31,514 nt of DNA, taken from the IMG/VR virus record IMGVR_UViG_3300045988_120591, positions 1 to 31,514 of that record; one strand, given 5' to 3'. Below the pieces are notes generated by a model. It searched no databases. It had not been told where the DNA came from and was given only the letters and a program-made list of their open reading frames with translations. Source of the DNA: a virus. The position numbers and the translations under genes were made by a program. This document shows, in pieces, positions 2,792-29,071 of this stretch. Each line of letters opens with the position of its first letter. Position 1 is the first letter of the stretch.

Positions 2792-2845
2792 ATTATTTTT
2801 CTATAAAATATAAATTATTCATTATGTGGTATATAAACAAAATAA

Positions 2846-2871
2846 GGGGCAAGTAAATTAATACTCGCCCC
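2846..2871 (-). terminator. Rho-independent terminator after the capsid/tube genes
   Basis: GGGGC(A)AG ... CT(C)GCCCC stem. On the minus strand it is followed by TTATTTTGTTT and sits 12 nt after the tube gene stop. Confidence 0.6.
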
Positions 2872-2882
2872 TCTTTCTGTTA

Positions 2883-3407
2883 TTAAGCACCTACAACGCT
2901 TTGGATAGCTTCTGCAGATAACTCATAAGGATAAGAATCTGAATCTGTTGAAAGTGTCAGAGTATAAGCATTCTGATCACCTTTAGCAGTACCAGTAACA
3001 CCCGTACCAGCGGAAGCGCTTACATAATCATCTTTACCTAAGAACCAATACTTACCATTGCTATCTTCAACAACAACTGCAAGCTGACCAATTGATAAAG
3101 CTGCAATCTCTACTCGTTTTGCTGTTTCCATCTTTGTAAATACAAGAGCAAGCTCATTACTTACATAATTAACACCAGCACTTTCATCTACATTTAAAGT
3201 TGAGGTTAGAGAACCAGTAGCCTTTCTAAATTGGTAGTTATACCATTTAGCTGAAGACTCAAGAGTAATAGCTGAAATCATATTGCTCTCAGGATCAACC
3301 GTTACACTTTTAACATCTGCATACTGGGTAATCCATACCTGTTTGATTCCACCCAATGAAGGTTGGCAATCAAGTGTGATTCCTGCGATAGTTATTAAAC
3401 AAGCCAT
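2883..3407 (-). CDS. Major tail (tube) protein, 174 aa
   Basis: Size, position after the capsid gene, and sequence character typical of siphovirus major tail proteins (..GGIKQVWITQYADV.., ..DSNGKYWFLG.., ..TGTAKGDQNAYTLTL..). No in-frame TGA. Confidence 0.55.
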   Translation of the reverse strand: MACLITIAGITLDCQPSLGGIKQVWITQYADVKSVTVDPESNMISAITLESSAKWYNYQFRKATGSLTSTLNVDESAGVNYVSNELALVFTKMETAKRVEIAALSIGQLAVVVEDSNGKYWFLGKDDYVSASAGTGVTGTAKGDQNAYTLTLSTDSDSYPYELSAEAIQSVVGA

Positions 3408-3447
3408 AATTTCAATATCATTTAGAAGTTAATAAAATCTATTGAAA

Positions 3448-4353
3448 TTAAGCCTTGGCACCTAATACTACTTCGTCAGGGAAAGCAACTTGTACACCAG
3501 CGTTAAATTCAATAGCTAATCTGAACTCGCGGAAATCCTGTGAATACCACAATTCGAATTTCTCTTCATCGTTCATCATATCTACACCATAGAAGAAGTT
3601 CTTGTCTAACTGACCAGCAACAATCTTATCAGTTCCATTAAGACCATTAACAGCAATAACCTTAACCTGCGAACCAGGAAGATAAATCTCACCATCAAGG
3701 CTTTCTCCGCTATAGTGGAAATAGTTCTTCTCAACAAGTTCATTTACGAACTTACGGAACATATCAGCACCAACAAGAATAGAAGCACCATCAAGAACCT
3801 TCTCAGGAATTGCATTATAAACTGCCATAATGTCAGTATAGGCAGATGTTCCAGCAATTGTTACATCAACAACACCATCAGCAGCACCAAGGATCTTTAA
3901 CAGACCATCAAAATACTTCAGGTTATTAGTTTCTGAAGCCGTATCACCCTGCCAGATAGCTATCTCAATAGCCTCTTTTACGTTCTCTACAACAGCATTT
4001 ACGAAATCCTCTTCAAAAGGAAGAGTCTTCTGACCAGCGGCTACCTTAACTGCATACTGAGTCCAGTATTTCAGCATAGCCTTATCGCAATATGCCATAT
4101 TAATCTTAATATTACCAGTCTTAAGAATTCTCTGAGAAAGAGTCTGAGTTCCAGACTCATCCCAACCACAAGTAAGACCATCACCGAACTGAACATCGGT
4201 AGATAACAGGTTAAGAGCAGCATCAGTTTTAATATCTGTCTGAAGATTAAATAAACTTGCACTCTTAGCTTTTAAAACCGCTTCCTTAATAAGAGGGAGA
4301 CGTCTTTGCTCCACATAAGCAGGAAGAGTTGTCATTACAGGACTATTTGCCAT
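3448..4353 (-). CDS. Major capsid protein (HK97-fold type), 301 aa
   Basis: Lies directly downstream of the protease and scaffold genes, with typical size and sequence character. All four Trp are TGG. Ends in TAA. Confidence 0.75.
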   Translation of the reverse strand: MANSPVMTTLPAYVEQRRLPLIKEAVLKAKSASLFNLQTDIKTDAALNLLSTDVQFGDGLTCGWDESGTQTLSQRILKTGNIKINMAYCDKAMLKYWTQYAVKVAAGQKTLPFEEDFVNAVVENVKEAIEIAIWQGDTASETNNLKYFDGLLKILGAADGVVDVTIAGTSAYTDIMAVYNAIPEKVLDGASILVGADMFRKFVNELVEKNYFHYSGESLDGEIYLPGSQVKVIAVNGLNGTDKIVAGQLDKNFFYGVDMMNDEEKFELWYSQDFREFRLAIEFNAGVQVAFPDEVVLGAKA

Positions 4354-4374
4354 AATTATTTAAAATTTTATAAA

Positions 4375-4989
4375 TTAACCAATAAAGTTTTTAAGCTTTC
4401 TATCTATTTCTGCTATCCCACTTATAGGAGCAGTTGTTTTATTTTCAAGTGTTTCCTCTGCTGAAAAAGCAGCACTCATCTTACTCATTTTTTCTACAGT
4501 CTTTTCAGTAGCTTCTGATTTTCCTTCAAGTTCTGCTACTTTCTTAACAAGCTTATCTACAATATCGTAAAGCTCATTAATTTCGCGATGAATAGCGTCG
4601 ATTGCATCAGTCTCAGTTTCTTTAACACCGTCTGTTTCAACAGCAGGATCAGTAACTTCCTCAGCTTTTACTTTCTTAGTTCCACAAGCAGCATCAACCT
4701 CAACAGTTCTCATACCCTCTTCTGGATCAACTTCAGCTTTAGGATCAGTAATGGACTCTACTTTACCGTCTTTAACAACAATCGTTTTGCCATCTTCGGT
4801 AACATACTCACCATCAGCAGCAGGTGCATATTCGCCAGTATCAGTATCCATTGTATATACACTCATACCTGCCCTTAGATCCTCATCCTCACTACCATCG
4901 TAAGTTAGAACTCCAGCACTAGTCTTAACATCGTTAAATTTTGCTAAGAGTTTACTAAGTTCGATTCTCAGTTTAGTTAATTTGTTCAT
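4375..4989 (-). CDS. Scaffolding protein (acidic, coiled-coil), 204 aa
   Basis: Lies between the protease and the capsid gene. Highly acidic and Lys/Glu-rich with helical heptad character. Confidence 0.55.
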   Translation of the reverse strand: MNKLTKLRIELSKLLAKFNDVKTSAGVLTYDGSEDEDLRAGMSVYTMDTDTGEYAPAADGEYVTEDGKTIVVKDGKVESITDPKAEVDPEEGMRTVEVDAACGTKKVKAEEVTDPAVETDGVKETETDAIDAIHREINELYDIVDKLVKKVAELEGKSEATEKTVEKMSKMSAAFSAEETLENKTTAPISGIAEIDRKLKNFIG

Positions 4990-5584
4990 ACTTAAATTTA
5001 AAATTTTTATGATAGTTTTGTTTATTTTTGCAACATTTTATAATAGCACTATGATCAAAATTTCCGTTTCTTTCAGCGTCCATAGCAGATTTCCAAGTGC
5101 ATATATAAGTATCATTAATATCTGTCATAATTATACGTTTACTTACTTTTTCTTTCTGCTGTTCAGTTTGTTTAGTTCCCAATCTACATTCTCTTAACTT
5201 TAATTTTGTTTCATCCTTTAATACTCTTCCAGACTGTTTTAAAGACATTTTGTGTTTAGATTCTTCACTGTGTTTAAATCCAGTATTAGAACCTCCACCT
5301 TCATTTAAATTATAACCATTATTTAATGTATCAAATAACTGAATATATTTAATTTCTGCATTATTTAGTTGTCTTTTCAATAATTCTGTAGAAGAACAAC
5401 AAAAGATTTGAAGAATTTCCCATTTAAAGTTATTGAATCCATATTTCCTAATCGCTCTATGAAAATATGTAAGATTAGAACTGTATTTATGTTCATTCTT
5501 TCTTCTCAAGAAATTATTTGTTTGTCCTACATATTTATTGCCATTTATAAGATTTGTTGCTAGATATATAACTCCACTATACAT
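4973..5584 (-). CDS. GIY-YIG homing endonuclease 1 (I-TevI-like, with NUMOD3-like repeats), 203 aa
   Basis: Motifs GVIYLATNLINGNKYVGQT, RRKNEH, YFHRAIRKYG, NGYNLNEGG, then GFKHSEESKHKMS and KDETKLKL. Inserted between the protease and scaffold genes, overlapping the scaffold start by 17 nt. Contains no TGA. Confidence 0.8.
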   Translation of the reverse strand: MYSGVIYLATNLINGNKYVGQTNNFLRRKNEHKYSSNLTYFHRAIRKYGFNNFKWEILQIFCCSSTELLKRQLNNAEIKYIQLFDTLNNGYNLNEGGGSNTGFKHSEESKHKMSLKQSGRVLKDETKLKLRECRLGTKQTEQQKEKVSKRIIMTDINDTYICTWKSAMDAERNGNFDHSAIIKCCKNKQNYHKNFKFKYEQIN

Positions 5585-5585
5585 T

Positions 5586-6176
5586 CTATTTAACTCTTTT
5601 TATTTTTCTCAACATTTTTTGAATCTCTTTAAGTTCCTCATATTCATCAGATTGTCTTTCTAAAGTAAACAATCCCTCAATAGAGAACCCTTTAAACTTG
5701 CCAGCTTTAATTGCATCCCATATAACAGGATTATTTACTTTATAAGTAGCAAATAATGAACCATCTGGACAATCAGCAAATTCAACTGGATTAATTCCTC
5801 TATCTATATCTTTAATATATAGTTCTTGAAGAATTATTCCAGGAATTACTGAATCTTCCAAATGTTCAATATTTACATCAGTAGTTCTCTTATCATACAT
5901 CATTTTTTCAGCCATTAAACGGAGAGTTTCTTTATCATATTGAATATAATATTCTCCGTTTTTACTATCCCGTCTAAATATAGGTATATCACATACCATT
6001 AAACAAGAAGTAACTATATGTTTTTCTTCATCCATCGAGAACTTCTGAGATTCCCCAAAAGCAAGCCAATTAACTTGGGTTGCAGGTTTACTGGTCAATG
6101 CTACGAACTCTATTCCATCACAATCATCAGCAATAATTGCTTGATATAATGGAAGATCATTATACATTTTTTCCAT
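5586..6176 (-). CDS. Prohead protease, XkdF-like serine protease family (from memory), 196 aa
   Basis: Position upstream of the scaffold and capsid genes. The C-terminal KGFSIEG motif and overall layout resemble XkdF-type phage proteases. Ends in TAG. Confidence 0.55.
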   Translation of the reverse strand: MEKMYNDLPLYQAIIADDCDGIEFVALTSKPATQVNWLAFGESQKFSMDEEKHIVTSCLMVCDIPIFRRDSKNGEYYIQYDKETLRLMAEKMMYDKRTTDVNIEHLEDSVIPGIILQELYIKDIDRGINPVEFADCPDGSLFATYKVNNPVIWDAIKAGKFKGFSIEGLFTLERQSDEYEELKEIQKMLRKIKRVK

Positions 6177-6255: not shown

Positions 6256-6304
6256 TGTCAAGTTTTTTACTCAAATTTGTATCTAAGATAAATAAATTTT
6301 GACA
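6256..6304 (+). repeat. Dispersed 50-bp element, copy 1 (49 bp, most divergent)
   Basis: TGTCAAGTTTTTTACTCAA...AAATAAATTTTGACA, aligned by eye with copies at 15367, 21575 and 29022. Confidence 0.8.
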
Positions 6305-6307
6305 TAG

Positions 6308-6351
6308 CACTACTATATAAGCACTGATAATCAGCAACTTACATAGTAGTG
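6308..6351. other. Nested inverted repeat downstream of the tape-measure gene
   Basis: CACTACTAT (6308-6316) pairs with ATAGTAGTG (6343-6351). It encloses the palindrome CTGATAATCAG (6324-6334). Confidence 0.4.
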
Positions 6352-6375
6352 TGTCATAAATTTTACTCACTTTAG
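6352..6375 (+). repeat. Partial fifth copy of the left half of the dispersed element, overlapping the tape-measure stop codon
   Basis: TGTCATAAATTTTACTCACTTTAG compared with the consensus TGTCAAGTTTTTTACTCACTTTTAG. Confidence 0.55.
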
Positions 6376-8714
6376 AAACTTGCATTTGATTCTGTAACTG
6401 CAACTTTAGTTTGAGCAGTAGTAATATCACTCTCAACTACATAACATTTAACTGGTTGATTCAATTCATCAGTCTCTTTATTGCCAAGTAAGTTTCGAGT
6501 ATATTCTACAGGAGCTGTATTTAAAGCAGCAGGAGCAGTAGTTCCTGCATCACTTCCAGAACCTCCAGATGAAGGAAGCTGCTCATTTTGGATAGCTTTT
6601 ACATTAGCAATACCAGCTATAACAGCAGTAGCAGCTGCAATAGGAGCAAGAATAGGTCCTACAAATGGAATACCCACCATAGCTTTATATGCACCTTGGG
6701 CAGAACTGATAGTATCAATAATAGCTTGAGTAGTAGCTAATGCTTTATAAACTTTAAATGATTTCTCTCTTTGCTTCTCTGATTTTGAATCATCACTAGC
6801 TTCTTGTTTAAATACATTAGCTAAAGCTCCACTTAAAGAAGAAGCTACATTCATAGTAGCTTGAATAGCCTGTTGCTTTTTAGCTTGTCTATCTTTAAAT
6901 GCTTGAAGATCTGCTTCTTCTCTTGCATTAGCTGCTTCTGATAAAGCTATATCATTAGCTTCTTGCTGTAATTTAATTGCTTGAGATTGATTGGCATATT
7001 CTTGTTCAGTTATCAGCTTATTGTTATATTGCTCATCTAAAATAGCTTGCTGTTGAGACATCAATTCATTCTCTCTTGTAATTCTATCTTTAGTGAGATT
7101 ATATAACTGTTCATTATAAGCTAATGTATCTTGATATTGTCTTTGAACATCTTCTCCAGATTGATAAAAATCCGTTGAACCAAATTGTTGAACTCTAGTT
7201 TCATAACTTCCAGATTTACCTGCAGATAATGCAGCCTCTTTATTTGCAAATAATTGAGATTCCCTATCTTGCATTTCTTGTAATGCAGATAATCTATCTT
7301 GAAGCTCTGTTTTATAAATTTCTCTCTGATCTTCTAAATATTCTTTATTATATGCATCATTTACTTGTTTAACTCTTTTTAAATATTCCTCTTGAGTTAA
7401 TTCTTTTTTATCGAGTAGCCATTTTAAATCATTTAATTGTAACTGATAATTTTCTTTTAAAATTAAATTTTCTCTATCTGTTTCACTTAATAAAGTTTTT
7501 TCATTATCAGACCAATATTTATCAATAGCTGCTTTTTTAGTTTTTATTTCATCTTGAAGTTTATCTAAAGCCTGTTTTCTAGCTCTTGCCGCTTCTTCTT
7601 CTGCTTTTTTTCTATCTTCAAGAATTTTATTTCCTGTTTTTACAAGATTTTGATAATCCCTTAAAGGATTTTTAGTCTCGTCTAAGTATTTAGTGTTATC
7701 TGCTAAACTTTCAGAAACTCTTTGTAATTCTAATCTCGCCTCTTTTACATCCTTCCCAGTTACTTTTTTTAAGAATTGTTGTCTAGATAATGTATTTTTA
7801 AATAATTCTGAGATTTCCTCTTCTGTTTTACCAAATCTTGTACCTATTGATAGTAAATCTTTATCATAAGCAGTTAGGGCATTCCTAAATGCCTTATCTA
7901 ATTCTATAATATCTTTCAAAAATGCCTTAGCTTCCCTTTCTTCAAAAGTTTGAAGGGTAACAGCAGCTCCTACTTTTGATAATTCCTTATATGCATCAGT
8001 AGCTTTAATTACATTTTCTATCTCAGTTTGTAGTTCTGGATTTAATTTGATTAGGTTTTCATACTCTTCTCTTCAAAATGATTCTTTAGCTTGAGTTCTT
8101 AAATTCTCATTTCTTTGTCTAATATTTTCTATTTCATCGCTTGTTAATTTAGCTTCATCTTTTAGTGAAGTAAGTTTATCTATAAGCAAACCAACTGCTA
8201 CAAGTAGAGCACCAATTCCTGTTGATACTAATGCTGCCTTAAATCCATTCATAGCAACTGATGTACCAGTTATTGCTACAGATAATGCTTTAAATGATTT
8301 TACTCCATTAAGAATACCTTCACCTAAACCTTTTAATCCTCCAATTCCCTGAACTATAGCAATTGCTGCTTGCAATTTAACCATAGTTTTTTGAAGATTC
8401 TCTGTATCTTTTCCAAATAAAGTGAATGCTGCACTAACAGCTGAAACTCCTCCAGCTAAACCTCCTGCTACTTGATTTATACTGTCAAACGCCTTAACTG
8501 CATTTACAGTTTTACCTTGCATAGATTCTGTAGCAACACCTAACTTATTTTGAACATTAACAAGTTCTTCAAGCTTTTTAGTATAGTCAGTACTACCAAT
8601 CTCAAGATCTTCAAGTTCAGCCGTCAAGCCAGCTACTTCTTCTCGTAGCTGCTTGATCGACTTTGAACTGGTTTTAGTATCTACACTAATTACTTTTTTA
8701 ATTTCTTCAGCCAT
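6372..8714 (-). CDS. Tape measure protein, 780 aa (fusion of track ORFs 8073..8714 and 6372..7919 through TGA at 8073)
   Basis: Both fragments share a frame (coordinates = 0 mod 3), and I checked that 7920-8072 contains no TAA or TAG. The sequence has long coiled-coil stretches plus Gly/Ala-rich hydrophobic segments typical of tape measure proteins. Ends in TAA. Confidence 0.75.
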
Positions 8715-8715
8715 A

Positions 8716-11700
8716 TTAGTTTATAGTTACGTTTTTAACAGTATCTTCTGTTAGTGTTAAATTCTCTGTATATTTAACTGTTCCTGTTGGTCCGTCAGAT
8801 ACTCTAAATAAAAATTGAACTCCATTTTGAGCATATATTCTATAACTTCCATCATCTCTCATATAAGTGACATTTAAGAAATTATCATTTTCAGTTAGAA
8901 TCTGATTAACGCCAGAAGGAATACCTCCAGTAGAAGTTTGAAGCTTTCCTGTAATAAGAATAGCTTTATTTGGGTCTGGAGTTTGAGTAAACATACATTG
9001 AGGGCCATTTATACTTCCTTGTTTATAAAGACTAAAATAGAAACTCCTTTGATTATATGTAGTATTCTCATTATAAGTAACTGTTAATTCTGTTTCTCCA
9101 GGTTGCCCAGATTCAGGTGTAATGCTTACAATTTCATTTGGACTATATCATCCTAATTCTCAAGGAATATTAGAAGTAACTGTAATCTTTTTAGTCCCAG
9201 CTTTATAATCTACAACTGGATCTGAATCGTCAAATGATATATACTCACCTAAATTTTGAATTCCAGCTAAATAACTATTAATATCTTGAACTTTAATAAA
9301 TTCACATCTAACTGTAGAATCTGAATTAATATCATAAGCATCAATCTTATTAAGTACCCAGTAAGAATCTTCAAAATAATAGAACTGTCTAAGTAAATCA
9401 TACTTAACATCTAAATCATCCAATCTTACAAAGCAGGTAACTTTTTTAGTATTTACATCAAATTGATCATTATAAAATTCACTCCAGAATCTACTATATA
9501 AAGTAGATTGTTCTAAATAACTAACTTTATCAATGTATATTTCTCTTGGAACCCCAAAATCTCAAGATGAAGATATAAAATTACTAGAAATAGTGTATCT
9601 TATAAATTGTGGTAATATGTTTCTTCTAATAGCTATTTTTTGTCCTGCAGAATTATTTTCACTATTAGTATAGATATAACAAGGTTCTCCATCATTAAGA
9701 ACTGACATTTCTGTAACATCATCAGTAATCCAATAATAAATAGGATTACCATTTATATCTTTCATATTAACATCATCATTATAAAATAATAAAGTACTTT
9801 TTATCTCTTCAAGACTTTGTTCATTATTATCTAATGTATAAAAACAAGTTTTTGCAAATATATCATTTCCAGGAACATCCCACCATTCTGTAGTCTTACC
9901 TTGGTCTATAAAATTAGCTCCATATAAATCCTGATCATTAGTCTTTACTTCTGTAGAAGTTCTATTAAATAAACTATATGTAATATTATCATTCATAAAT
10001 GCGGGTACATAAGTATTTCCAGAATTAAAGAAATTTCTAAAATACTTATCTGCATCTCTTGCTGATACTACATTTTGAAATATATTTCCAGAATATAAAT
10101 CAGTATTATCACTATTAAAATTATATCCAGTGTTTAATCTTTGCTGACCATAATCTATATCATATTGTCTATCATATTTCTTGGCATAATATGTTTCTGG
10201 AGTTTCTAATGACATAGTGTATCACTTCTTATCAAATAATATTGGATTTACATTGAAGTCTTTAGAATAATCAATTCTTTTACTCCAATCAGAGATTATA
10301 TTCTTAAAGAAATTATTTCTAGTATGTATTCTAATTGTTTTACTATCAATATCTTTTGTAAAATATAATCCAAATAGTTTTGCATAACTTAATAAGTAAT
10401 CAGCAGGAGATTGTTCTGTCTTTAATAATTTCTGCTTAGTAATTAAAGCATCAGAAGTAACTGCTGAAGGCCAAGAAGCCTTTAATGTATATTGAGTTTC
10501 ATCATATAAAAATTCTGACCATCCAGCCACTCTATTTGCTGTGACATTATTAGGATGCATATTATCTGATTGTCATACTGCATCTTGATTGTATAAACTC
10601 TCAGTTCTTCTTGCAATTTGTATATTCACTAAAATCTTATTAACTTTAGGCATATCTTTTACAGTAAATCTGAAAGTATTAGTATTATTATCACTTTTAA
10701 AATAATACCTATTTCCACTATCTTTTACAAAGTGACCAAAAATAGCTTCTACAGGTGCATCAGTTAATGGATAATAATTAAACCAAGTTCCAGGTCCTGA
10801 TTGAACTTGAGTGTTTATCTTATTTGTAAAGTTATATAAAGGAGAGTATGCTATAGGTCTACTAGGAGATGAAGTATCTTCAGCATCATATATCAATATC
10901 TGTGCTGTTACTGATGTTCTGTAAGGATCATTCCTATAATCTGTATTTCCAGCTCTTCCGTTCCTTACATAAGATAAATATAAATCATTACCTGCTGAAA
11001 CATTTGCATTATAAAATAGCTGAAAATCAACATTAATATTAACAAGAGTATTAGCAGGAGTTGCAGATAAATCAATTACTTGACCTTCCCCAGGAACTAT
11101 TACATCACTCCCTGTAACACTAAATCTACCCCAGTTTACTGAAGTAGTTGTTCCTCCAGGTTTTAATCCGCACCAAAATAAATCATTATATTTAGTAAGT
11201 TTGGCATTCTCTGTAATATTATCTGATTCTTCATCTTCAGTAGATCCTAATAAAGGCAATGCAACAAATGCTTTATTTCAATATGGATTTGAGTAATTAA
11301 AGAAATCTGGGTCCATTATAACATCATATCCAGAATTTTCTTTTCTACAGATAGTTTCAATTAACTTACTCAATTTTAAAGCTGGCCTCTGCATATAACT
11401 TCTAAGATCTCTCATCTCCCATTCTGTATATGCTCTATTTAATTTAGCTAATCCATACCCATTATAAGGTGTATATGTAACTCCTGAATCTGTCTTACTA
11501 GTAGGAAATATGCTATTTTCATTAGTATTTATTAAACAAGTTTCATTATCAAAGTTTTCATATAAACCATTATATGCTGGAATGAATGTTAAATAGTCAT
11601 AGATTTGACTGCCTTCATTCGTTTTATTTCAGTCAAAACAAGTATTTACAAAATCTTTGTTAATATAAAAATTAAGTTCAGTATCAGCAGGAAGTGTATT

Positions 11701-20923: not shown

Positions 20924-21409
20924 ATGATTTACGTAATTAAATTAACTAAAACGAATTTTATTAAAGTTGGTTACACTACTAATATAAGTGGCAGACTAAC
21001 TGCTTATAAAAATACTATTCCAAATGAGATGATAGAATTTTTTATAGCAAAAGAAGGAAATAGAGATGATGAAAATTATTATAGAGATAAATATAGAGCA
21101 TATAAAACTAAGAGTAATTCAGAATGGTTAAAACTTCCAGATGAATTAATTGTAGAGCTATTAGCAGATTTTAAGAGTGCAAATAATATAAAAATAAATA
21201 AACAAAGCAAAAAAGAATGATATAATGAGAATATAGATAAATTAGTAGAATTGTGCTTATCTGGAGTATCATTAAATAGAGCTGCAATTCAATTAAATGC
21301 ACTAAATTGAGACTGAATAAAATATGCTAATCAAAGATACGAAAAAGAGAATGGCAAAAAATTAACAAAACTTTGGGTAAGAAAAATCAAGAAAAGTTTT
21401 GCAGAATAA
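20924..21409 (+). CDS. T5orf172 (GIY-YIG-like) domain protein with C-terminal HTH, 161 aa
   Basis: MIYVIKLTKTNFIKVGYTTNISGRLTAY..SEWLKLP. Reads through three TGA (21218, ~21308, ~21314) as ..KKEWYNENIDKLVELCLSGVSLNRAAIQLNALNWDWIKYANQRYE.. to TAA at 21407. The upstream part of the track ORF from 20807 is unlikely to be coding. Confidence 0.7.
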
Positions 21410-21428
21410 AAATTTATTATTATATTTG
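21398..21428 (+). promoter_or_regulatory. Bacteroidota-type promoter P1: TTTG-N19-TATATTTG
   Basis: TTTG at 21398-21401 and TATATTTG at 21421-21428. Confidence 0.55.
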
Positions 21429-21479
21429 TAGTGTAAAGAAAAAAAAAATAATTTTTTATTAAAAATAATACCCGAATTA

Positions 21480-21511
21480 TTTGGAAATTTAATTTTTATG
21501 TATTATATTTG
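21480..21511 (+). promoter_or_regulatory. Bacteroidota-type promoter P2: TTTG-N20-TATATTTG, with an ATG 4 nt downstream
   Basis: TTTG at 21480-21483, TATATTTG at 21504-21511 and ATG at 21516-21518. Confidence 0.6.
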
Positions 21512-21515
21512 CAGT

Positions 21516-21599
21516 ATGAAACTAAAACTAATAATTCTAGGCAGGTGAAAATCCTGCCACTTTTTGAATCTTACTGTCAAGTTTTTTACTCACTTTTAG
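21516..21599 (+). promoter_or_regulatory. Leader region: a mini-ORF (10 codons to the TGA, 27 codons to the TAG) or a short RNA ending at the terminator
   Basis: ATGAAACTAAAACTAATAATTCTAGGCAGGTGAAAATCCTGCCACTTTTTG... The TGA at 21546-21548 forms the first three loop bases of the hairpin. Confidence 0.3.
21540..21565 (+). terminator. Rho-independent terminator or attenuator upstream of the helicase gene
   Basis: GGCAGG-tgaaaat-CCTGCC followed by ACTTTTT. Confidence 0.6.
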
Positions 21600-21624
21600 T
21601 AGTAAGAAAATAAAAATATTGACA
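21575..21624 (+). repeat. Dispersed 50-bp element, copy 3
   Basis: TGTCAAGTTTTTTACTCACTTTTAGTAGTAAGAAAATAAAAATATTGACA, located 30 nt upstream of the helicase ATG. Confidence 0.85.
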
Positions 21625-21654
21625 AAAACTTTAACTATTTAAATTATTAAAATT

Positions 21655-23376
21655 ATGAAAACATATTTAAACAATTTGATTAATGAGTTGCCAACTAACT
21701 GCTTATTTGATAAAGGAAAAGTTGGATGTGGAGGAACTTCAATGGCAATTGAATGTAATAAGCCTTATGTTATTTGTGTTCCATTTACTAGCTTAGTTGA
21801 GAATAAACTTCAACAATATCCAAATGAAAGACGTACTGAGAAGATATTTGGAGTTTATGCTGGAGTTACTATTAAAGAGATTAAAGATTACGTAGATAGT
21901 GTTAAATGTCCTAAAATTATTGTTACATATAACTCACTTCCGAAGGTTATTTCTGCAGTTAATACTAAAGAATACAGTTTATTAGTAGATGAATATCATA
22001 TACTATTTAATCAGTATAGCTTTAGAAAGGATGCTATTAAACCTGTTTTAGAGAACTATAAATTATTTAAAGATTTTACATTTATGACTGCAACTCCTCT
22101 TGAAGAAGAATTCGTATTAGATGAATTAAAAGATTTAGAATTAGTAAAACAAGAATGGGATGATGTTATTGAAACTAAGGTACAAGCCGTTAAATGTAAG
22201 AATGTTGAAGCTTCAACTATTAAATTAATTAATGCTGTTCTTAATAATCAAGTTGAAGGTAATGTTTATATATTTGTAAATTCTGTGGACTTTATAAAGA
22301 ATCTTATTCAGAAAGCTAAACTTACAGAAGAGAATACCAGAGTTATATATTCCAAAAACAATAAAACCAAATTATCAATTCATAATTCTACAGTATTAGA
22401 TGAACCTAAGAAAATAAATTTATTAACTTCTACAGTATTTGAAGGTTCTGATATTTATGATGAAAATGGAAGAATTGTAGTAGTAAGTGATGCTCAAAAA
22501 GCACAAACTCTTCTTGACATCTCAACTTCAATCCAACAGATTGCTGGCAGAATTAGAAATAGTAAATATTTAAACTGGATAACTCATCTTTACTCAGCAA
22601 CAAGATATGCAGATATTAGTTATGAAGACTTTAAAAAGAAGAATATCCAGAATATTGAGGAAACTAAGATTGCTGTAGATGCTTACAATGCAATGCCTGA
22701 AGTTGCAAGAAAGAAACTTAAAGAATTTACATCTGATACTTATATCCAAGTAAATGATGATTTTACATTTACATTTGATCCAAATATGGCTAAGGTAGAT
22801 ATTTTTAACTTTAAAGTGACAAGAGGTTTATATTCTATTAGAACGAATCTTAATAAAGAATATATAAAGAATGGATTTAAAAAAGTAATAGAATGTGAAG
22901 ACAACTCTATTAAGATTGATTTTGAATCTGATAATAAACCATTTAAAGAACTAATTAAAGAAGTTAGAACAGAATGGGAAAATAAATTTAAACTGAATAC
23001 TCCACTCTTAAATGATGCTATTATTAAATATCCTTGGTTACCAGAAGCTATTAGTAAATTAGGATTCGAAAAGATGGCAAGCTTGAAATATTGCATTTCG
23101 GATATTAAAGATGCTCTATTAAAGAAATCAAATAAAAGTGCAGATAATAAAGCAGCTAAGAAGTTAAATCAATCAATTACTCTTGGAATGTGGTATTCTA
23201 ACGCTGATATTAAAAAGTTTGTTAAAGAAGCTTATGAAATTAGTGATATTACTATTACTCCAAAAGCAACAGAAATTGATAAATATTATGAAGTTAAAAA
23301 ATGCCAGAAAAGAGTAAATGGTAAACAAACTGAAGGTTATGTAATTATTAATAAAAAATTTGTATTTAATAAATAA
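21655..23376 (+). CDS. SF2 (DExH-type) helicase-like replication protein, 573 aa
   Basis: Motif I-like GKVGCGGTS, motif II LLVDEYH, motif III MTATP and motif VI QQIAGRIRN. No in-frame TGA, and all five Trp are TGG. Ends in TAA. Confidence 0.65.
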   Translation: MKTYLNNLINELPTNCLFDKGKVGCGGTSMAIECNKPYVICVPFTSLVENKLQQYPNERRTEKIFGVYAGVTIKEIKDYVDSVKCPKIIVTYNSLPKVISAVNTKEYSLLVDEYHILFNQYSFRKDAIKPVLENYKLFKDFTFMTATPLEEEFVLDELKDLELVKQEWDDVIETKVQAVKCKNVEASTIKLINAVLNNQVEGNVYIFVNSVDFIKNLIQKAKLTEENTRVIYSKNNKTKLSIHNSTVLDEPKKINLLTSTVFEGSDIYDENGRIVVVSDAQKAQTLLDISTSIQQIAGRIRNSKYLNWITHLYSATRYADISYEDFKKKNIQNIEETKIAVDAYNAMPEVARKKLKEFTSDTYIQVNDDFTFTFDPNMAKVDIFNFKVTRGLYSIRTNLNKEYIKNGFKKVIECEDNSIKIDFESDNKPFKELIKEVRTEWENKFKLNTPLLNDAIIKYPWLPEAISKLGFEKMASLKYCISDIKDALLKKSNKSADNKAAKKLNQSITLGMWYSNADIKKFVKEAYEISDITITPKATEIDKYYEVKKCQKRVNGKQTEGYVIINKKFVFNK

Positions 23377-23390
23377 AAATATTATATTTG
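23359..23390 (+). promoter_or_regulatory. Bacteroidota-type promoter P3: TTTG-N20-TATATTTG, with an ATG 4 nt downstream (a leaderless-type arrangement)
   Basis: TTTG at 23359-23362, TATATTTG at 23383-23390 and ATG at 23395. It overlaps the helicase 3' end. Confidence 0.6.
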
Positions 23391-23394
23391 TGAT

Positions 23395-23556
23395 ATGGAA
23401 AGTGATATTAAAGAAACAATTAAACAAACAGAAGAGTATATTAAAGAATTGGATAAATGAATGCTCGAATGTAAAGAGGCTACTAAAAGATTTGGTGATA
23501 TTATAGATAAAGTATTAAAAGATAAAGATTATATGTTTATTTCTAAATTTGATTAA
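23395..23556 (+). CDS. Small hypothetical protein, 53 aa
   Basis: MESDIKETIKQTEEYIKELDKWMLECKEATKRFGDIIDKVLKDKDYMFISKFD. One in-frame TGA. Ends in TAA. Confidence 0.45.
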
Positions 23557-23558
23557 TT

Positions 23559-23699
23559 ATGGATGATTATTTATTTAAAAAGCTTGAAGAACTAGAATAT
23601 AGAATAGTTCAACTAGAAAACCAGAATAGAGGTTTAGTTTGGGAAGAAGTAAAAGAAACACCCAAACCAGAGATTCCTAACGCAACATATATTGACTAA
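23559..23699 (+). CDS. Small hypothetical protein, 46 aa (coiled-coil)
   Basis: MDDYLFKKLEELEYRIVQLENQNRGLVWEEVKETPKPEIPNATYID. Starts 2 nt after the previous stop. Confidence 0.4.
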   Translation: MDDYLFKKLEELEYRIVQLENQNRGLVWEEVKETPKPEIPNATYID

Positions 23700-23700
23700 T

Positions 23701-23841
23701 ATGAAGTACTTTACATATAAATTATGCTTAAATGGAGTAAATTACGTTTATGTAATTCCCGAAAATAGTAAATTCTTAGTAGATTTACAAACTGGAGAAT
23801 TAATACCTAAAGATGAGAAATTATTTGAGATAATGGAATAA
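23701..23841 (+). CDS. Small hypothetical protein, 46 aa
   Basis: MKYFTYKLCLNGVNYVYVIPENSKFLVDLQTGELIPKDEKLFEIME. Starts 1 nt after the previous stop. Confidence 0.4.
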   Translation: MKYFTYKLCLNGVNYVYVIPENSKFLVDLQTGELIPKDEKLFEIME

Positions 23842-23844
23842 ACA

Positions 23845-23879
23845 AAAAGGAGGGTTATTTGCCCTCCTTTTCTTTTTTA
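23845..23879. terminator. Strong bidirectional terminator between convergent transcription units
   Basis: AAAAGGAGGG-ttatttg-CCCTCCTTTT followed by CTTTTTT. It abuts the stop of the minus-strand GIY-YIG gene at 23880. Confidence 0.8.
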
Positions 23880-24449
23880 TTAAACATATCTTCACTTGAA
23901 TCCTTTAGCTGTATTTGCTAATCCACCACATACTCTACTAATAGCTCCTCTATCAGTTCCTACAGATTTGGCTGCTTCTGTGCAACTTTCATACTCTTGA
24001 ATAAAATTACCATCTAAATCATACTGAGCTACTTTACGACATCTTTGTTTGTTATGAGCATCTACTTTAACTCTTCAAGATTCTGGGCAATTATGTTTCT
24101 TTCCCTTATTAGAATTAGACAGTTTCTTCTTTCATTCAGAATTAAATTTGACTCCGTAATTGCCTCCTTCTCCTCCAGGTTTCAAATTTAAACACATAGG
24201 ATCAGTGTCCCATTTATCTCCAATTAGTTTGTATTCTAATTTAGATAATTCATCTGCATTAGTGCAAGTTGCCAAAATAATCTTTTGGTATGCATTAGGG
24301 AATCTTTTGTAATAATTAGTAATAATCCTTCCTGATCCTTTATATGGATCTTTATTTATGTCTTTACCTCTATAAATCCTTTTCCCAATATAATACTTGC
24401 CTCTTAATGTACCTGCAGTTAAAATTATTTTATAACAATAGTAAAACAT
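23880..24449 (-). CDS. GIY-YIG homing endonuclease 3, 189 aa
   Basis: YKIILTAGTLRGKYYIGKR.., ..EYKLIG.., NLKPGGEGG. Continues through TGA at 24132, 24075 and 23892 to ..VAQYDLDGNFIQEYES..TAKGFKWRYV and TAA at 23880. The frame was checked triplet by triplet. Confidence 0.75.
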
Positions 24450-24901
24450 TATATAATAGTAAATTTCTGTCGTCTTTGCATCCCGTCTTTATTCTTTAAT
24501 CCCAAGTGTATTCAACTTGCTATACCATTCCTAGGCCTTTCATATATCAACTGGTCGAAATCAAATTCTTCAATAGCTTCAGCAATCCAACTTTGGAATA
24601 CTTTCATATTACCATTAATTGGAGATATATCTGCTGCATACCCTGTTAAATGAGCAGAAGTTGAAGATCCTCCTACTGCTTTATTAAGCTCCTTATTTCT
24701 AAAACCAGAGGAAATCCTGATGCCTGCGTTACCAAGCTGATTGTCATCACAATACTTTGCCCATCTCTCTCTTATTGGGTCTAAAAGCTTCTCGACCAAC
24801 TCTATCAGGTGCTCTGTTATACTCTCATCTGGAGTGTTATCTATATGCTTAATTGAAGCAGTATCAGATCTTGTTAATTCTTCGAGTGTGAAATACTTCA
24901 T
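24449..24901 (-). CDS. Endolysin, peptidase M15 (M15_3-like zinc D,D/L,D-peptidase), 150 aa
   Basis: FTLEEL..., SSGFRNKELNKAVGGSSTSAHLTGYAADI, FDQLIYE. Continues through TGA at 24512 as ..GIASWIHLG.. to TAA at 24449. Confidence 0.75.
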
Positions 24902-25062
24902 TATTTAAGTACATCTTTAATCATAACATATCTATAAAATAGATGTGAAGCTACACCTATTACAAGTAATACTACAGTAATCCAAAAAGGAATTACTTTA
25001 ATTAGTAAACATATCAGCAGAATAATAACTACTGCAATTACATATTTTAACCAATATTTCAT
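24901..25062 (-). CDS. Holin-like small membrane protein, 53 aa, two predicted TM segments
   Basis: MKYWLKYVIAVVIILLICLLIKVIPFWITVVLLVIGVASHLFYRYVMIKDVLK. Its TAA overlaps the endolysin ATG (TAATG). Not in the ORF track because it is shorter than 60 aa. Confidence 0.6.
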   Translation of the reverse strand: MKYWLKYVIAVVIILLICLLIKVIPFWITVVLLVIGVASHLFYRYVMIKDVLK

Positions 25063-25063
25063 A

Positions 25064-25720
25064 TTATATTTTATTTAAAATTATACTTATCTGTATTCCA
25101 GTTCTTCTTAGATGTACTCAAGTATCATAAGGCATAGGTGTATCACAGAATGATAAACCTAAAATGCCAATATCTTTATCCTCAGTCTTTAAATAAAATA
25201 CTGCTATTTCATTCACTCTGTTGGATTTAAATGCATAATATAATCTTGGATCATCTGCTTCTAAACTATCTATATTACCAAACCATCCATCATTCTTAGA
25301 AAACTCTATAATTGAAGTATAGTCAGATAACAGGAAATCTTTATAATGGCTACTTACAGGTCTTATTCCTGGTTTTACTTCCTCTGCATTCATTACTCCA
25401 TAGGTAAATGGAAGTCCTCCTAATCCAGTAGTTCCATTATGATATTCAATAACCCAAGCTCTATCAGCATTGGTACTTTGAAGCAATTCTTTAAGCTTAT
25501 ATTTAATCTTCAAAGTTGCTTCATTTCTTGCAATAGTTTTAGAATTGTGAGTTTGTTCAATATAGGTTACAACCTTATTATAAACAATAGAGGGATTAAG
25601 TGTAATAACCATTACATAGGATATAAATATTAATCCAATCCCTGCTTTAAATATCTTTAGTAATCCATATTTATCTACTCATTCTAATACCTTTCCAAAC
25701 CAGTTTAATTTATTTTCCAT
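25064..25720 (-). CDS. Membrane-anchored protein of unknown function, 218 aa
   Basis: Track ORF 25118..25612 extends upstream to ATG 25718-25720 (MENKLNWFGKVLEWVDKYGLLKIFKAGIGLIFISYV..) and downstream through TGA at 25118 to TAA at 25064. Two in-frame TGA. Confidence 0.55.
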
Positions 25721-26145
25721 TACATATTATCAGAACAAGTACCCAGAGTATTGTCTACAGCTAAATCAACTCTAACAAATACTCCAGTACAAATATCTTT
25801 GAACTTCTGATAAAATGGAGTAAAAATTAAAGGATAAGAAATATCAACTTCTGGATATTGGTTATTAAATCGGTTAATTATATTAGTTAATGCTAATATT
25901 CCAGCTGATTGCTCTTCAAGCTGATTATTATCAGTCTCATCCCATCTTGCTATAAAATAGAGATTTAAAGAGTAAGTAATAGTATCCTCATCCATATTAA
26001 ATGTATTTGGAGTTATATAAAATACATTATATTCAATAGTTGGGATACTATTAAGTTCATATATATCCTTACTTCCTACAAAATTAATATTGGGTTCTTC
26101 AAGAGCACAAGCTTTTAAATTGTTTATTAATTCAAAATACGTCAT
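25720..26145 (-). CDS. Hypothetical virion/neck protein, 141 aa
   Basis: ATG at 26143-26145 directly follows the TAA of the upstream gene (MTYFELINNLKACALEEPNINF..). Function is inferred from position within the portal-connector block only. Confidence 0.45.
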   Translation of the reverse strand: MTYFELINNLKACALEEPNINFVGSKDIYELNSIPTIEYNVFYITPNTFNMDEDTITYSLNLYFIARWDETDNNQLEEQSAGILALTNIINRFNNQYPEVDISYPLIFTPFYQKFKDICTGVFVRVDLAVDNTLGTCSDNM

Positions 26146-26146
26146 C

Positions 26147-26830
26147 TTACTTACTCTTTTTATTGTTATCACTTGAAGGGAAATCATAAGCTCTTTGCAG
26201 AGGACCTTCACAAGAATTATATCTCCAACCTTTACCTCTAGCTCCACCTAACCAAATAGTGCAAGATGAACTTGAATACATATTTGGATACATATCTTTA
26301 AGAGGTTTATAAGAATACAATTCAGGAAAATCATTATAATATGTAATTACCCAATTTTGTAATCTTGTTTTAAAGAAATCTGCTTTATCTCTATAATATT
26401 TCTTAATAAGATTAACTTGATTAATATCAGAAGTTAAATCTTTCTCATCATCAGTCCTCATAACACCAAAGTTACTAAGCTTAAACGAAATAGGTATAGT
26501 AATCTCACTTAATACTTGATAAAGTAAATAAGGCTGAATATAGTAATCTAGCAATTCTTTATATCTATGATTTTCTGGGTCATCTATAGAAGTAGGATCA
26601 TAAATAGGAGGTTCTATTGGATGAACTGGTTTATTTGGGTCTTTTCAATCAATTACTAATTTCTGAATCTTTTCTAAGAGCTTAGTTCCAATTAATGACT
26701 GAAGCTCAATATCTTGTGCAAGTTTAATTGCTGACTGAAGATATTTACCAGAAACATTATTGTCTAAATTGGATTCTGATTTTATATAATCTTCAGATAT
26801 TAATAGTACATTTCTATAATTATTTTCCAT
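26147..26830 (-). CDS. Head-tail connector-like protein, 227 aa
   Basis: Track ORFs 26645..26830 and 26147..26554 share frame 2 mod 3, are joined through TGA at 26645, and have no TAA or TAG in the gap. The ATG overlaps the portal stop. The function is positional. Confidence 0.45.
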
Positions 26831-27945
26831 TATTCAACTTGTTTAGTATCAGCTTCATTAAGGCTAAATGGTGAAATTGTGATTGAATTCTGCATTCCAA
26901 AGATCTTATCAAATGAATCACAAATCTCTTTCTGAATAGGTCTAATCATAGTTCTATTATAAAGCTTGAATGAAGATTCAAATTCTTGCTCATTAAAACC
27001 AGTTGAATCTGAGTTAATTCCAAATAAGTTAGGATTAGCTCGGAAAGCACAGAATATTTGATCTCTTGTTCTCTCAGATAACGATTGATATTTCTCATCA
27101 AAATCATCAGAATCTAATCTTTCAATAGTAGTCTTATTTGCCTCATCTGCATTATATGAAATCAATATTCTGCCAGCATTCTGATAACCAGAGAACTTCT
27201 CATTAATATTCCTCTCAATCTCCTCTCTAATTTCATCTGTAGGTTCCCCATTATTAAAGTTAATAATAAGATTACCCATAAATCCATTATTGATGTTATT
27301 TAAATGGAATTCATTAATATTTTTCTCAGTTTCACAAGATAAAATGGCAGCTCCATAAACAGGAATAGGATATACTCCTCTTGTTATATAACCTTTATTA
27401 TAAAATATACTAGCTGGATTTTCATCAGCAGCTCCAAATTTTGGATATTTTATAGCTTTTACAGACCAAGCTGTCCAATCAGTTGCATAATATAATATAT
27501 CATTCTTTTCACTCGACCTTACATTCATAAAATCAATATGATAGATCTCTGCAACTCTTCCAAGCATATCTCTAATTACTTGGATAGCATAACCTCCAAA
27601 TATCATCTTATCAATAGTGATTTTTCTCATTATATCAACTATTGTTTCACCTTTCTTGTTTACAACTACTTCAAATCCTGGAGCATTACATTTAACATCA
27701 TTACCAACAATAAAGTCAGCAGAACCATTAATAATAGATTGGAGAGTAGCAACATTTAAGTATAAATCTCATAGATATAATGGATATTTGTTATCTTCTC
27801 CCCACATTATCATATCAGAACCTCTTTTCTTTGTTTCCGTTGGAAGAACGATGTTAGATTGAATAAAAGGATCTAGGGCTGACATCATTATTTTACTTTT
27901 GTGCCCATTCTCATTTGTAGCCTTTACATTGTTTATTTTTTCCAT
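26830..27945 (-). CDS. Portal protein, 371 aa
   Basis: Track ORFs 27769..27975 and 26830..27630 share frame 1 mod 3 and join through TGA at 27769. ATG at 27943-27945. Portal-like sequence character (..GGYAIQVIRDMLGRV.., ..NAGRILISY.., ..FRANPNLFG..). Confidence 0.7.
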
Positions 27946-28540
27946 AAAGTACTCTGTTAATATTTTTATAACCACTTTTTTGTGCTTCTTTACAAGAATC
28001 TCATCTTTTAATAAAATTGCCGTCTAAATCTAATTGATTTACTGGTTTGCTTCACTTTTTACGTAGATTTTCTTTCTCCTCTTCAGTTCTATGTCTACCA
28101 TACATACCATTCTTCTCTCCAGATCTAGATTCACTCATTTTCTTCCGAGTATCCTCACTACATTTTTGCACTCCTTTTTTATCCTTATTTCAGGGATCTT
28201 TCCCAATTGTACCTCCGCCTCCTAGAGTTGAATTATATCCATTTTTAAATGTATCATATAAAGCTATATATTTAATTTCAGATGCATCTAACTGTTTCTT
28301 TAACAACTCTTTTGAAGAACAGGAAAATATTTTAAGTATTTTATAATCTCAATTATCTATACCATATAATCTGATTGCTTTATGAAAGTGATCATTATAA
28401 CTTCTTGAATTTGAATTAAAACTATCAGCACAATGTTGTTTCCATCTTATATCAAATGACCTACAAGTTTGTCCAATATACATTTTTCCTGTTACCTTAG
28501 AGCGGACCAAATATATTTCTCCAGTTTTATTTTCGCTCAT
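27893..28540 (-). CDS. GIY-YIG homing endonuclease 2 (I-TevI-like), 215 aa
   Basis: GEIYLVRSKVTGKMYIGQT, HFHKAIRLYG, NGYNSTLGGGG, and the NUMOD3-like GMYGRHRTEEEKENLRKK. Five in-frame TGA (28349, 28190, 28052, 28001, 27911). Ends ..CKGYKWEWAQK with TAA at 27893. The 3' end overlaps the portal start by 53 nt. Confidence 0.8.
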
Positions 28541-28919
28541 AAGCCATATATTTGTTTTGTTTGTCGTATTGATAATTATTATTCTCATAATCTCCAATTC
28601 TTATTAATCCTGTTCCCAATATAGGTATTGGTTTACCAGCAACTAATATCTGAGTACCATTAGTAAGAGTATTATTATATGTAACCAGAATAACTGGATT
28701 ACCATATAACTCCGATCTAAATGGATTGTTTACATCAACTATAACTTGAAATTTATTTGGATTAGTAAATAAAATATATTGATATTCACCGTCTCTCATT
28801 CCTTCTTGAAGTGTAATATCAAACTTATAGTAGATATTCTCAGAATAATTCTGATTTTCAAGATCAAATGTATAAACTTCTTTAGTAGTTGTATTTTGCA
28901 TTAATAAAGTATAATTCAT
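28527..28919 (-). CDS. Hypothetical protein, 130 aa
   Basis: ORF from ATG to TAA without TGA. It is the first gene after repeat copy 4 and its hairpin. Confidence 0.5.
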   Translation of the reverse strand: MNYTLLMQNTTTKEVYTFDLENQNYSENIYYKFDITLQEGMRDGEYQYILFTNPNKFQVIVDVNNPFRSELYGNPVILVTYNNTLTNGTQILVAGKPIPILGTGLIRIGDYENNNYQYDKQNKYMAYERK

Positions 28920-28997
28920 ATTTTACAGCAATTTACATTAGTTTTACATATCTTTTTCTTAAAATATAAACCAATTTACTAATGTATTAAAATAATT

Positions 28998-29019
28998 AAA
29001 GGAGACCTAAGCCTCCTTT
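28998..29019 (-). terminator. Hairpin, probable terminator of the fibre/RBP operon
   Basis: AAAGGAG-acctaagc-CTCCTTT. On the minus strand it is followed by AATTATTTT. Confidence 0.5.
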
Positions 29020-29021
29020 AA

Positions 29022-29071
29022 TGTCAAGTTTTTTACTCACTCAAAGTACTAAGAAAAAATAAAAACTGACA
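29022..29071 (+). repeat. Dispersed 50-bp element, copy 4
   Basis: TGTCAAGTTTTTTACTCACTCAAAGTACTAAGAAAAAATAAAAACTGACA. It begins 4 nt from the stop of the gene at 29076. Confidence 0.85.

Follow-up and report, generated by a model that had tools for sequence, protein, structure and literature searches.

Four copies of a repeat in a circular phage genome

IMG/VR virus record IMGVR_UViG_3300045988_120591, analysed here over its full 31,514 nucleotides (the window), carries four copies of an element of about 50 bp between its gene modules (Table 1). The copies had been described in an earlier note, and both their coordinates and their common orientation were confirmed by the 18-mer TGTCAAGTTTTTTACTCA, which occurs exactly four times in the window, always on the plus strand. 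Allowing up to three mismatches still returned four matches against 0.13 expected, and four or more were seen in 0 of 100 shuffles. A covariance model run with filters off recovered just these copies (59-73 bits), scoring copy 1 at 59.3 bits on the minus strand versus 15.6 bits on the plus strand. Across variants the element is 45-51 bp long (mostly 48-51) with a G+C content of 20-26%, and it ends in imperfect inverted arms of 11-13 bp, T/A runs counted, that lie about 44 bp apart. The half copy reported beside copy 1 is equally real. It can pair with the right half of copy 1, hence with its 5' half on the minus strand, around an inner hairpin; all three are foldable as a single 146-nt structure with a minimum free energy (MFE) of -42.5 kcal/mol (z = -5.0).

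Table 1. Positions of the element and of other features; coordinates are those of the window unless a contig is named, and the strand given for copies is that of the stable hairpin
Feature	Position	Strand	Remarks
Copy 1	6256..6304	-	Between tape-measure gene g6372 and head-protease gene g5586; exact 18-mer
Copy 2	15367..15416	-	20-bp hairpin with 4 G·U pairs; z = -3.5; 72.8 bits
Copy 3	21575..21624	-	Inside a plus-strand unit, 30 nt before the ATG of helicase-like g21655
Copy 4	29022..29071	-	Hairpin; 69.3 bits; starts 4 nt past the g29076 stop
Half copy	6352..6375	-	TGTCATAAATTTTACTCAC; GUGAGUAAAAUUUAUGACA on the minus strand; overlaps the tape-measure stop codon
Inner hairpin	6308..6351	-	44 nt, between half copy and copy 1
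31-aa open reading frame	15419..15514	-	Read with TGA as Trp; conserved in all relatives; stop 2 nt before copy 2
G+C-rich hairpin	15339..15366	-	AAAUAGGGAG...CUCCCUAUUU + GUGUUU; on the coding strand it follows copy 2 after 3 nt
Terminator-like hairpin	21540..21558	+	GGCAGG...CCUGCC + ACUUUUUG; between early promoter and copy 3; scan call
Intrinsic terminator	28995..29022	-	12-bp stem, tail UAUUUUAAUA; abuts copy 4; scan call
Bacteroidota-type promoter	21480..21511	+	TTTG-N20-TATATTTG; reads towards hairpin, copy 3 and g21655
TATATTTTA box	15303..15311	-	Between terminator hairpin and ATG of g14817
TATATTTTA box	28960..28968	-	Between terminator and ATG of g28527
TATATTTTA boxes	2804-2812, 18227-18235	-	Further intergenic gaps
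g26830			Portal
g24449			Endolysin
g16223			Large terminase (TerL)
g6372		-	Tape measure
g5586		-	Head protease
Homing-endonuclease-like genes	4973-5584, 12152-12631, 18541-19107, 19330-19845, 20924-21409, 23880-24449, 27893-28588		
30-nt palindromes in other contigs	L173 2285-2329, L181 199-233, L167 7155-7190, L189 66-95		

A terminal overlap of 55 bp shows that the assembly is circular, as the note's placing of the copies around a circle presupposed. The minus strand is the gene strand except at 20924-21409 (a T5orf172 gene with a helix-turn-helix, HTH), 21655-23376 (helicase-like) and three small open reading frames (ORFs) extending to 23841. Under the standard code the minus-strand ORFs are broken throughout; once TGA is read through, they tile tightly. 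In the homing endonucleases of the HNH and GIY-YIG kinds (e.g. 12152-12631, 19330-19845 and 23880-24449), TGA stands at the Trp of the motifs NLEW-CT and GFKW-KY, and gene stops in the window are TAA or TAG without exception, which together indicate that TGA codes for Trp in this genome. No gene in the window is preceded by a Shine-Dalgarno sequence, the early control region holds promoter motifs of the Bacteroidota kind (TTTG-N19-21-TAnnTTTG) that are kept in relatives too, and a relative with 51% TerL identity encodes a Bacteroidota-type integrase; for these reasons the host most likely belongs to the Bacteroidota. Small phage clades with alternative codes and Bacteroidota hosts are already known (bioRxiv 10.1101/2021.08.26.457843).

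With TGA read as Trp, the proximity to stop codons that had been claimed for two copies holds (2 nt at copy 2, 4 nt at copy 4), and each class of site adjoining an ORF has a stop 1-10 nt (1-4 nt in most cases) ahead of the element. The copies had also been said to fill the only sizeable intergenic gaps. They do occupy the largest, but not the sole ones, other gaps of about 90-150 nt lying at 2791-2883, 18150-18240 and 20770-20924.

On the coding strand, copies 2 and 4 share one arrangement: the stop codon, after 1-4 nt the element, then a G+C-rich hairpin and, about 40-80 nt further on, the ATG of the next gene. The G+C-rich hairpins noted earlier at 15339, 21540 and 28998 are all present, and a terminator scan flagged two of them as terminator-like (21540-21558, plus strand; 29022 to 28995, minus strand). 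The hairpin at 15339..15366 was not flagged because its T tail is interrupted; it is conserved in relatives, with a flip of its loop, and is probably an intrinsic terminator as well. Terminators lie 0-3 nt downstream of copies 2 and 4 on the coding strand, whereas copy 1 and a fifth site found in some relatives are without one. Neither a boxA/boxB motif nor an N-like protein was identified. Between terminator hairpin and next ATG at copies 2 and 4 falls the box TATATTTTA, which has seven minus-strand occurrences, four of them in intergenic gaps upstream of genes (g656 and g17815 included). We regard it as a candidate phage late-promoter box, and as a better promoter candidate than the element. 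The early promoter that reads towards copy 3 has a mirror copy on the minus strand (20847 to 20816), and the motif is kept in relatives L060 and L061.

Strand-specific pairing and its conservation among relatives

The whole element of about 50 nt pairs as a hairpin of about 20 bp that is stable only as the minus-strand RNA carrying UGAGUAAAAAACUUGACA. An outer stem of 11 bp had been proposed; the outer arms do pair, but they are not the whole structure, and the interior pairs too through minus-strand G·U. For copies 1-4, the MFE of the minus-strand RNA is -8.3, -13.1, -12.1 and -10.7 kcal/mol (z -1.9 to -3.5), and that of the plus-strand RNA is -4.5, -6.5, -9.6 and -6.1 kcal/mol. The asymmetry arises because GUGAGUAAAAAA pairs with UUUUUAUUUAUU through G·U, where the other strand has C·A mismatches.

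The same preference was seen in 32 unique element sequences collected from close relatives. RNAalifold returned nothing on a MAFFT alignment, in which the arms were out of register, so each sequence was folded singly and a structure was specified by hand. The strand with TGAGTA folds better in 29 of the 32 variants, by 4.8 kcal/mol on average, and forms 15-21 pairs per variant, G·U pairs accounting for 0-5 of these and for 2-5 in most. Cells of the hand-specified structure are paired in 83% of cases versus 46-60% in controls with the partners slid, and wobble pairs are biased to this strand (82 G·U-type cells versus 12 C·A-type cells). At column pair 4-49, 25 rows have C-G and 7 have A-U. U·G is nearly unchanged at two pairs, with a switch to C-G at one of these in one variant, and none of the 32 departs from the (T)GAGTAAAAA core or from UAC in the apical loop. 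Folded with DNA energy parameters, the hairpin is weak and loses its asymmetry, so that it is best read as RNA, not DNA. The element itself failed the test for an intrinsic terminator, as an A/U-rich hairpin followed by CUUAAAUAG or UUAAAGGAG and no U tract.

TGTCAAGTTTTTTACTCA was found at 59 IMG/VR loci, in phage contigs of about 30 kb and always at the same four boundaries, and an IMG/VR search with the interior motif recovered additional arm types. Type A has TGTCAAG on the left and C(T)TGACA on the right, type B TGTAAC(C/T) and (G/A)GTTACA, type C TGTCTA and TAGACA, and a hybrid TGTCTAC and ATAGACA. The arms vary at positions 4-6, and complementarity is kept in every type. Arm type follows the site and not the genome, single contigs carrying A and B, or A and C plus the hybrid. 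This mixture within one genome argues against one arm-specific trans-acting DNA-binding protein, and since the mixed arms stay complementary, it points to base pairing as the constraint. Blocks such as ACTCAAATTT turn up at differing sites in differing genomes, which suggests gene conversion between copies. The TGAGTA strand lies on the same genome strand in 4 of 4 window copies and in 6 of 8 site/type classes in relatives. At the fifth site, directly after the helicase stop, the stable strand is the sense strand of the plus-strand genes.

The earlier note took absence of the element from equivalent boundaries in relatives as evidence against it, and the relatives divide by distance. Those with at least 81% TerL identity keep the element at the same boundaries; those with 77%, 63%, 57% and 51% lack it in the genome parts sampled, a filter-free model search included. 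In the latter, the copy 2 position has neither element nor terminator hairpin, and outside the clade the stop of the conserved 31-aa ORF there overlaps or abuts the next start codon. Absence from relatives at or below 77% TerL identity, with genes overlapping at the position, indicates that element, terminator and upstream region are a lineage-specific insertion of the clade with at least 81% identity, one that split a formerly coupled operon.

Alignment ends between relatives cluster near copies 4 and 1, not 2 and 3, with a greater number near homing-endonuclease genes; the case for recombination breakpoints at the copies did not convince us. In relative L075, near position 4954, the loop of the copy 2 terminator is reverse-complemented (GGGAGTAAATCTCCC versus GGGAGATTTACTCCC; compare window 15339-15366). 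This inverted loop in one relative indicates that palindrome flipping occurs in the clade.

A putative RNA stem-loop and the alternatives

Our proposal, held with moderate confidence, is that the element works in cis as an RNA stem-loop, either where a transcription unit has its 3' end or between two cistrons. It is probably an RNase III-type processing or stability site and not a promoter. A processing or stability role in 3' untranslated regions was among the candidates of the earlier note, and it is favoured by the G·U strand bias, the covarying arms, the closeness to stops and the terminators. The strand to be read is UGAGUAAAAA(A)CUUGACA, the minus strand of the window, which is coding for three of the four copies. 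Its transcript would form a hairpin about 20 bp long and rich in A/U, whose G·U pairs are conserved and whose apical loop includes UAC, 1-4 nt past the stop of the last gene of a transcription unit; a helix of this length on the coding strand is found at copies 1, 2 and 4 and at the fifth site. With about two turns, it would be a substrate for a double-strand-specific RNase of the RNase III type or, alternatively, a docking site for a factor reading the invariant GAGUAAAAA strand. By either route it would set the 3' end of the upstream message, hence its stability, and separate neighbouring modules. The ancestor of the clade with at least 81% TerL identity would have acquired, or itself formed, element and terminator jointly as a small cassette.

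Most likely the kind of element is familiar and the version found here undescribed. The intercistronic RNase III hairpins of phages T7 and T3 (R0.3 to R18.5) are related irregular hairpins of about two turns that lie between genes, and the sib hairpin of phage lambda is coupled to a terminator; they function in the transcript sense alone, shaping the 3' ends and stability of upstream messages. These are the closest analogues, being, as here, irregular hairpins of about two turns between genes or beside a terminator. In contrast to them, cleavage is here a prediction, the stem is almost pure A/U with conserved G·U and an invariant strand, and the host resembles Bacteroidota; there is also one inverted allele, and one copy runs antisense to its neighbour. 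The promoter-early stem-loop (PeSL) terminator/promoter cassettes of T4-like phages (PMC2839356, PMC4122927) resemble our cassettes in being small, repeated, terminator-bearing units at module boundaries of mosaic genomes that vary among close relatives. PeSL carries a host-type early promoter, however, whereas the element contains neither TTTG...TAnnTTTG nor a fixed -10 box, and breakpoint clustering of the PeSL type is not clear at the copies.

Hardly anything is known of how transcription is laid out in small gut-Bacteroidota phages, including those that read TGA as Trp. If the stem-loop proposal is true, this clade cut a continuous, translationally coupled late operon by means of cassettes of hairpin, terminator and promoter-like box; the cassettes would be a testable handle on module timing and mRNA processing, and close phage lineages would differ by regulatory punctuation rather than genes. 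There would also be a caution for motif hunting: the striking TTGACA arms are probably just one of several interchangeable stem closures.

Several points weigh against the stem-loop proposal. The covariation comes from few independent events (four pairs changed on both sides) among sequences that are all close relatives, and two of five shuffle measures were not significant. Rfam gave no hit at the gathering threshold, nor any at the elements when E values up to 5 were allowed. Copy 3 alleles have the smallest strand difference, the two strands of B-type copy 3 folding about equally because one G is lost, and in types A and B the stable strand of copy 3 is antisense to the adjoining helicase gene g21655. 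Judged against the flanking hairpin and genes, which are the same in both, B-type copy 2 is reverse-complemented with respect to the A-type, and its sense RNA folds weakly (-7.6 kcal/mol, z = -1.6). Copy 3 and this inverted copy, neither of which places a helix of about 20 bp on the coding strand, weaken a purely sense-RNA model. RNase III requires no invariant sequence, so the conserved strand and UAC loop are unexplained by RNase III alone; and because a G+C-rich terminator hairpin would already protect a 3' end, an extra hairpin needs another reason. Transcription of the relevant strand through the element, cleavage and an effect on expression are steps that we infer from sequence.

That strand and loop are invariant, which suggests that a sequence-specific factor reads them in addition, and so close a tie to terminators would allow for a switch by retroregulation or antitermination. 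A more ambitious version, which we consider quite improbable, makes the hairpin such a switch: an RNA comparable to nut/put or sib that lies 0-3 nt upstream of intrinsic terminators. The GAGUAAAAA strand and the UAC loop would then be read by a factor from phage or host, which would gate transcription or message survival from module to module, from packaging to tail to head. If true, this would be a timing device new for Bacteroidota phages.

Among readings that dispense with such a role, it is unlikely that the element is a selfish or neutral palindromic insertion, of the kind of MITEs (miniature transposable elements with inverted repeats) or REP sequences, that spread to stop-proximal sites and owes its pairing to spread or copy correction. 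A miniature mobile element had been suggested before, and part of that suggestion stands: insertion is lineage-specific and in either orientation (B-type copy 2 shows both at one site), the fifth site is occupied in some genomes alone, and the common ACTCAAATTT-like blocks suggest gene conversion. A 14-bp direct repeat, ATTCTAAAAATATT, also flanks B-type copy 1 in L060, and the terminal inverted repeats of 11-13 bp and, at the border, the size of 45-51 bp agree with the definition of MITEs as 50-800 bp long with terminal inverted repeats of at least 10-15 bp (PMC11602168). Two further marks of MITEs, a target-site duplication of 2-10 bp at each insertion and a partner transposase in host or other genomes, are missing: window copies 1-4 show no regular duplication, the L060 repeat being the sole direct repeat found; no transposase is encoded in the window, and no RAYT or other transposase was found for the element. 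No full-length copy appeared in 185,579 species genomes (25 single hits), and IMG/VR hits beyond this phage clade are chance matches. Moreover, GAGTAAAAA is invariant across diverged alleles and one-strand pairing is kept through G·U to G-C changes, which points to selection. REP/BIME, ERIC and Correia palindromes, with prokaryotic MITEs the class for comparison (PMC2817692, PMC11602168), are likewise short imperfect palindromes just past stops, in several copies and either orientation, and can fold in mRNA and affect its stability; the element differs in having four or five copies within one phage clade and no regular target-site duplication. Selfish insertion and RNA function can be compatible. 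Less probable again is a double-stranded DNA site, an operator or stoperator-like roadblock for g19089, the T5orf172-HTH protein g20924 or a host AbiEi/DUF6088 antitoxin. The arms do form an inverted repeat around an invariant core, and the four co-oriented window copies in short intergenic regions recall the stoperators of cluster A mycobacteriophages, 13-bp asymmetric double-stranded DNA sites for one repressor. Yet stoperators are one motif, whereas here the arms vary within a genome and the constraint is base pairing on one strand. Each half-site differs by 3-4 positions among types A, B and C, which coexist with the same regulators in one genome, so that one dimeric protein could not read them all; the arms are about 44 bp apart, and double-stranded recognition leaves the G·T mismatch bias on one strand unexplained.

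We think it very unlikely that the element is a phage-specific middle or late promoter, used by host polymerase with a phage factor such as the sigma2-like g19793 and the sigma4-like g19089. In its favour are the conserved motif at module boundaries, the outward TTGACA arm (with TTGACA-N17-AATTAT before the g21655 ATG at copy 3 and TTGACA-N17-TATAAT in one copy 1 variant), the weak match of g19089 to sigma-70 region 4, and the position of g21655 downstream of a terminator, which calls for a promoter of some kind. The promoter or operator role of the earlier note nevertheless found no support, since TTGACA is replaced by GTTACA or TAGACA in alleles of the same site, the types coexist and there is no fixed -10/-7 box. 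At copies 2 and 4 the terminator hairpin fills the place of a -10 box, B-type copy 2 is inverted, and a separate conserved TATATTTTA box stands downstream of the terminators. Bacteroidota polymerase does not use TTGACA/TATAAT, and the host-type TTTG...TAnnTTTG promoters and missing Shine-Dalgarno sequences fit such a host; no RNA polymerase gene was detected among the ORFs scanned. Equally little probability attaches to a single-stranded DNA hairpin acting on one strand in replication, in priming or helicase loading. The shared genome strand of TGAGTA in all window copies and most relative classes would suit it, as would the helicase-like g21655 module, seen only in element-bearing genomes among the relatives sampled. 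Under DNA parameters, though, the fold is weak and has no strand preference, the fifth site and B-type copy 2 lie on the opposite strand, and tight spacing to stops and terminators is unexpected of a replication signal.

A host operator also enters through bacterial sequences sharing the 18-mer. The 25 single hits in the species genomes are, by rough estimate rather than computation, about the chance number for such an 18-mer. Three of them, with one viral and one metagenome hit, are 30-nt palindromes TGTCAAGT-N4-5-TGAGTAAAAAACTTGACA that share 25 nt with the A-type element (TGTCAAG...TGAGTAAAAAACTTGACA), exact 18-mer included, an identity that exceeds chance. In Fibrella, a Delongbacteria metagenome-assembled genome and a metagenome contig, the -33/-35 region that the palindrome overlaps belongs to a gene with a DUF6088 (AbiEi-like) N-terminus, which in Fibrella is followed by AbiEii. 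These palindromes are probably operators of DUF6088-AbiEii toxin-antitoxin operons, and they speak for a DNA-binding site. The phage element differs from them in having about 20 extra paired nt and a place past stop codons, arm types B and C do not match, and a DUF6088 homologue was searched for in the phage without success. The link may reflect common origin, mimicry or convergence; the A-type arms may be mimics of an operator that AbiEi-type antitoxins of the host use. The idea that the bacterial palindrome forms an abundant REP-like family was rejected, with only one further hit in JGI metagenomes.

Other candidates were rejected on specific grounds. A T7/T3-like promoter with an ACTCACT core would read antisense at three copies of the four, and the ORFs scanned yielded no RNA polymerase family. 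A sigma-70 promoter with the arms as -35 has a -10-like hexamer at copies 3 and 1 only, and the arms are not conserved. With the hairpin removed from the spacer, TTGACA-N16-TAGAAT appears at copy 3, TTGACA-N17-TAAATT at copy 4 and nothing at copy 2; we judged these matches a coincidence in A/T-rich DNA. For a Bacteroidota -33/-7 promoter inside the element, some copies have partial CAAATTTG-like matches with no -33 box. An ECF-type promoter (TGTAAC-N17-GTA) would have a variable -35 part alongside a sigma4-like protein that is constant. A suppressor tRNA or tRNA-like structure, with UCA in the ACUCA loop, was negative by ARAGORN and has no acceptor or T arm. Nor does the element match what we take to be the core motifs of attC, IS200/IS605 and HUH nick sites.

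Neighbouring genes and further features

The 573-aa product of g21655 (21655-23376) has a Walker A motif and a DEYH box. It gave no match to PHROG families or PDB sequences, and its best Pfam match, Helicase_C_2, was below threshold (E = 0.0014; 19.2 bits, cut-off 25.3). In the 57% TerL relative, an HTH_36 protein stands in place of the replication module. The 104-aa g19793 resembles sigma region 2 by eye, and the 85-aa g19089 weakly matches Sigma70_r4 and HTH_50; PDB and Pfam gave no firm match for either. Their genes are neighbours with overlapping stop and start in relatives L007 and L014, and in the window an HNH endonuclease gene intervenes (19089-20107). Together they may form a two-piece sigma-like factor.

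ARAGORN found no tRNA gene in the window, suppressor tRNA included, which makes TGA decoding a puzzle: the host looks like a standard-code bacterium of the Bacteroidota, and the phage is without a detectable suppressor tRNA. Trp codon usage switches at copy 1. The head module (656-6176, g656-g5586) has 0 TGA and 11 TGG codons, and the tail module (6372-15296) has 19 TGA among 45 Trp codons, which hints that the head module derives from a standard-code phage. The 148,631-bp record IMGVR_UViG_3300045988_175865 has a copy of the phage in its last 31 kb or so, and its remainder may be host, other phage or misassembly; the parts read gave phage tail genes alone and no host clue.

Seven homing-endonuclease-like genes (GIY-YIG, HNH/NUMOD and T5orf172) within this 31-kb genome explain D1 and D2, both long dispersed repeats, and also the majority of breakpoints in alignments between relatives. 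The T5orf172 gene is flanked by a 77-nt inverted repeat (20794-20870 and 21457-21533); each arm is one copy of the early promoter of Bacteroidota type (TTTGGAAATT...TATATTTG), the two being divergent, so that the gene looks like an insertion into a divergent promoter region. A strong bidirectional terminator at 23845-23871, between the small plus-strand ORFs (23395-23841) and a converging GIY-YIG gene, has no copy of the element alongside. In an unrelated 50-kb viral contig (L031, 7329-7443), a tRNA-like gene of about 115 nt, which ARAGORN does not call, has an acceptor stem TGTAGGG/CCCTACA and a T arm GCAGGTTCAAGTCCTGC, and its long central arm holds the same 18-mer with ACUCA in the loop.

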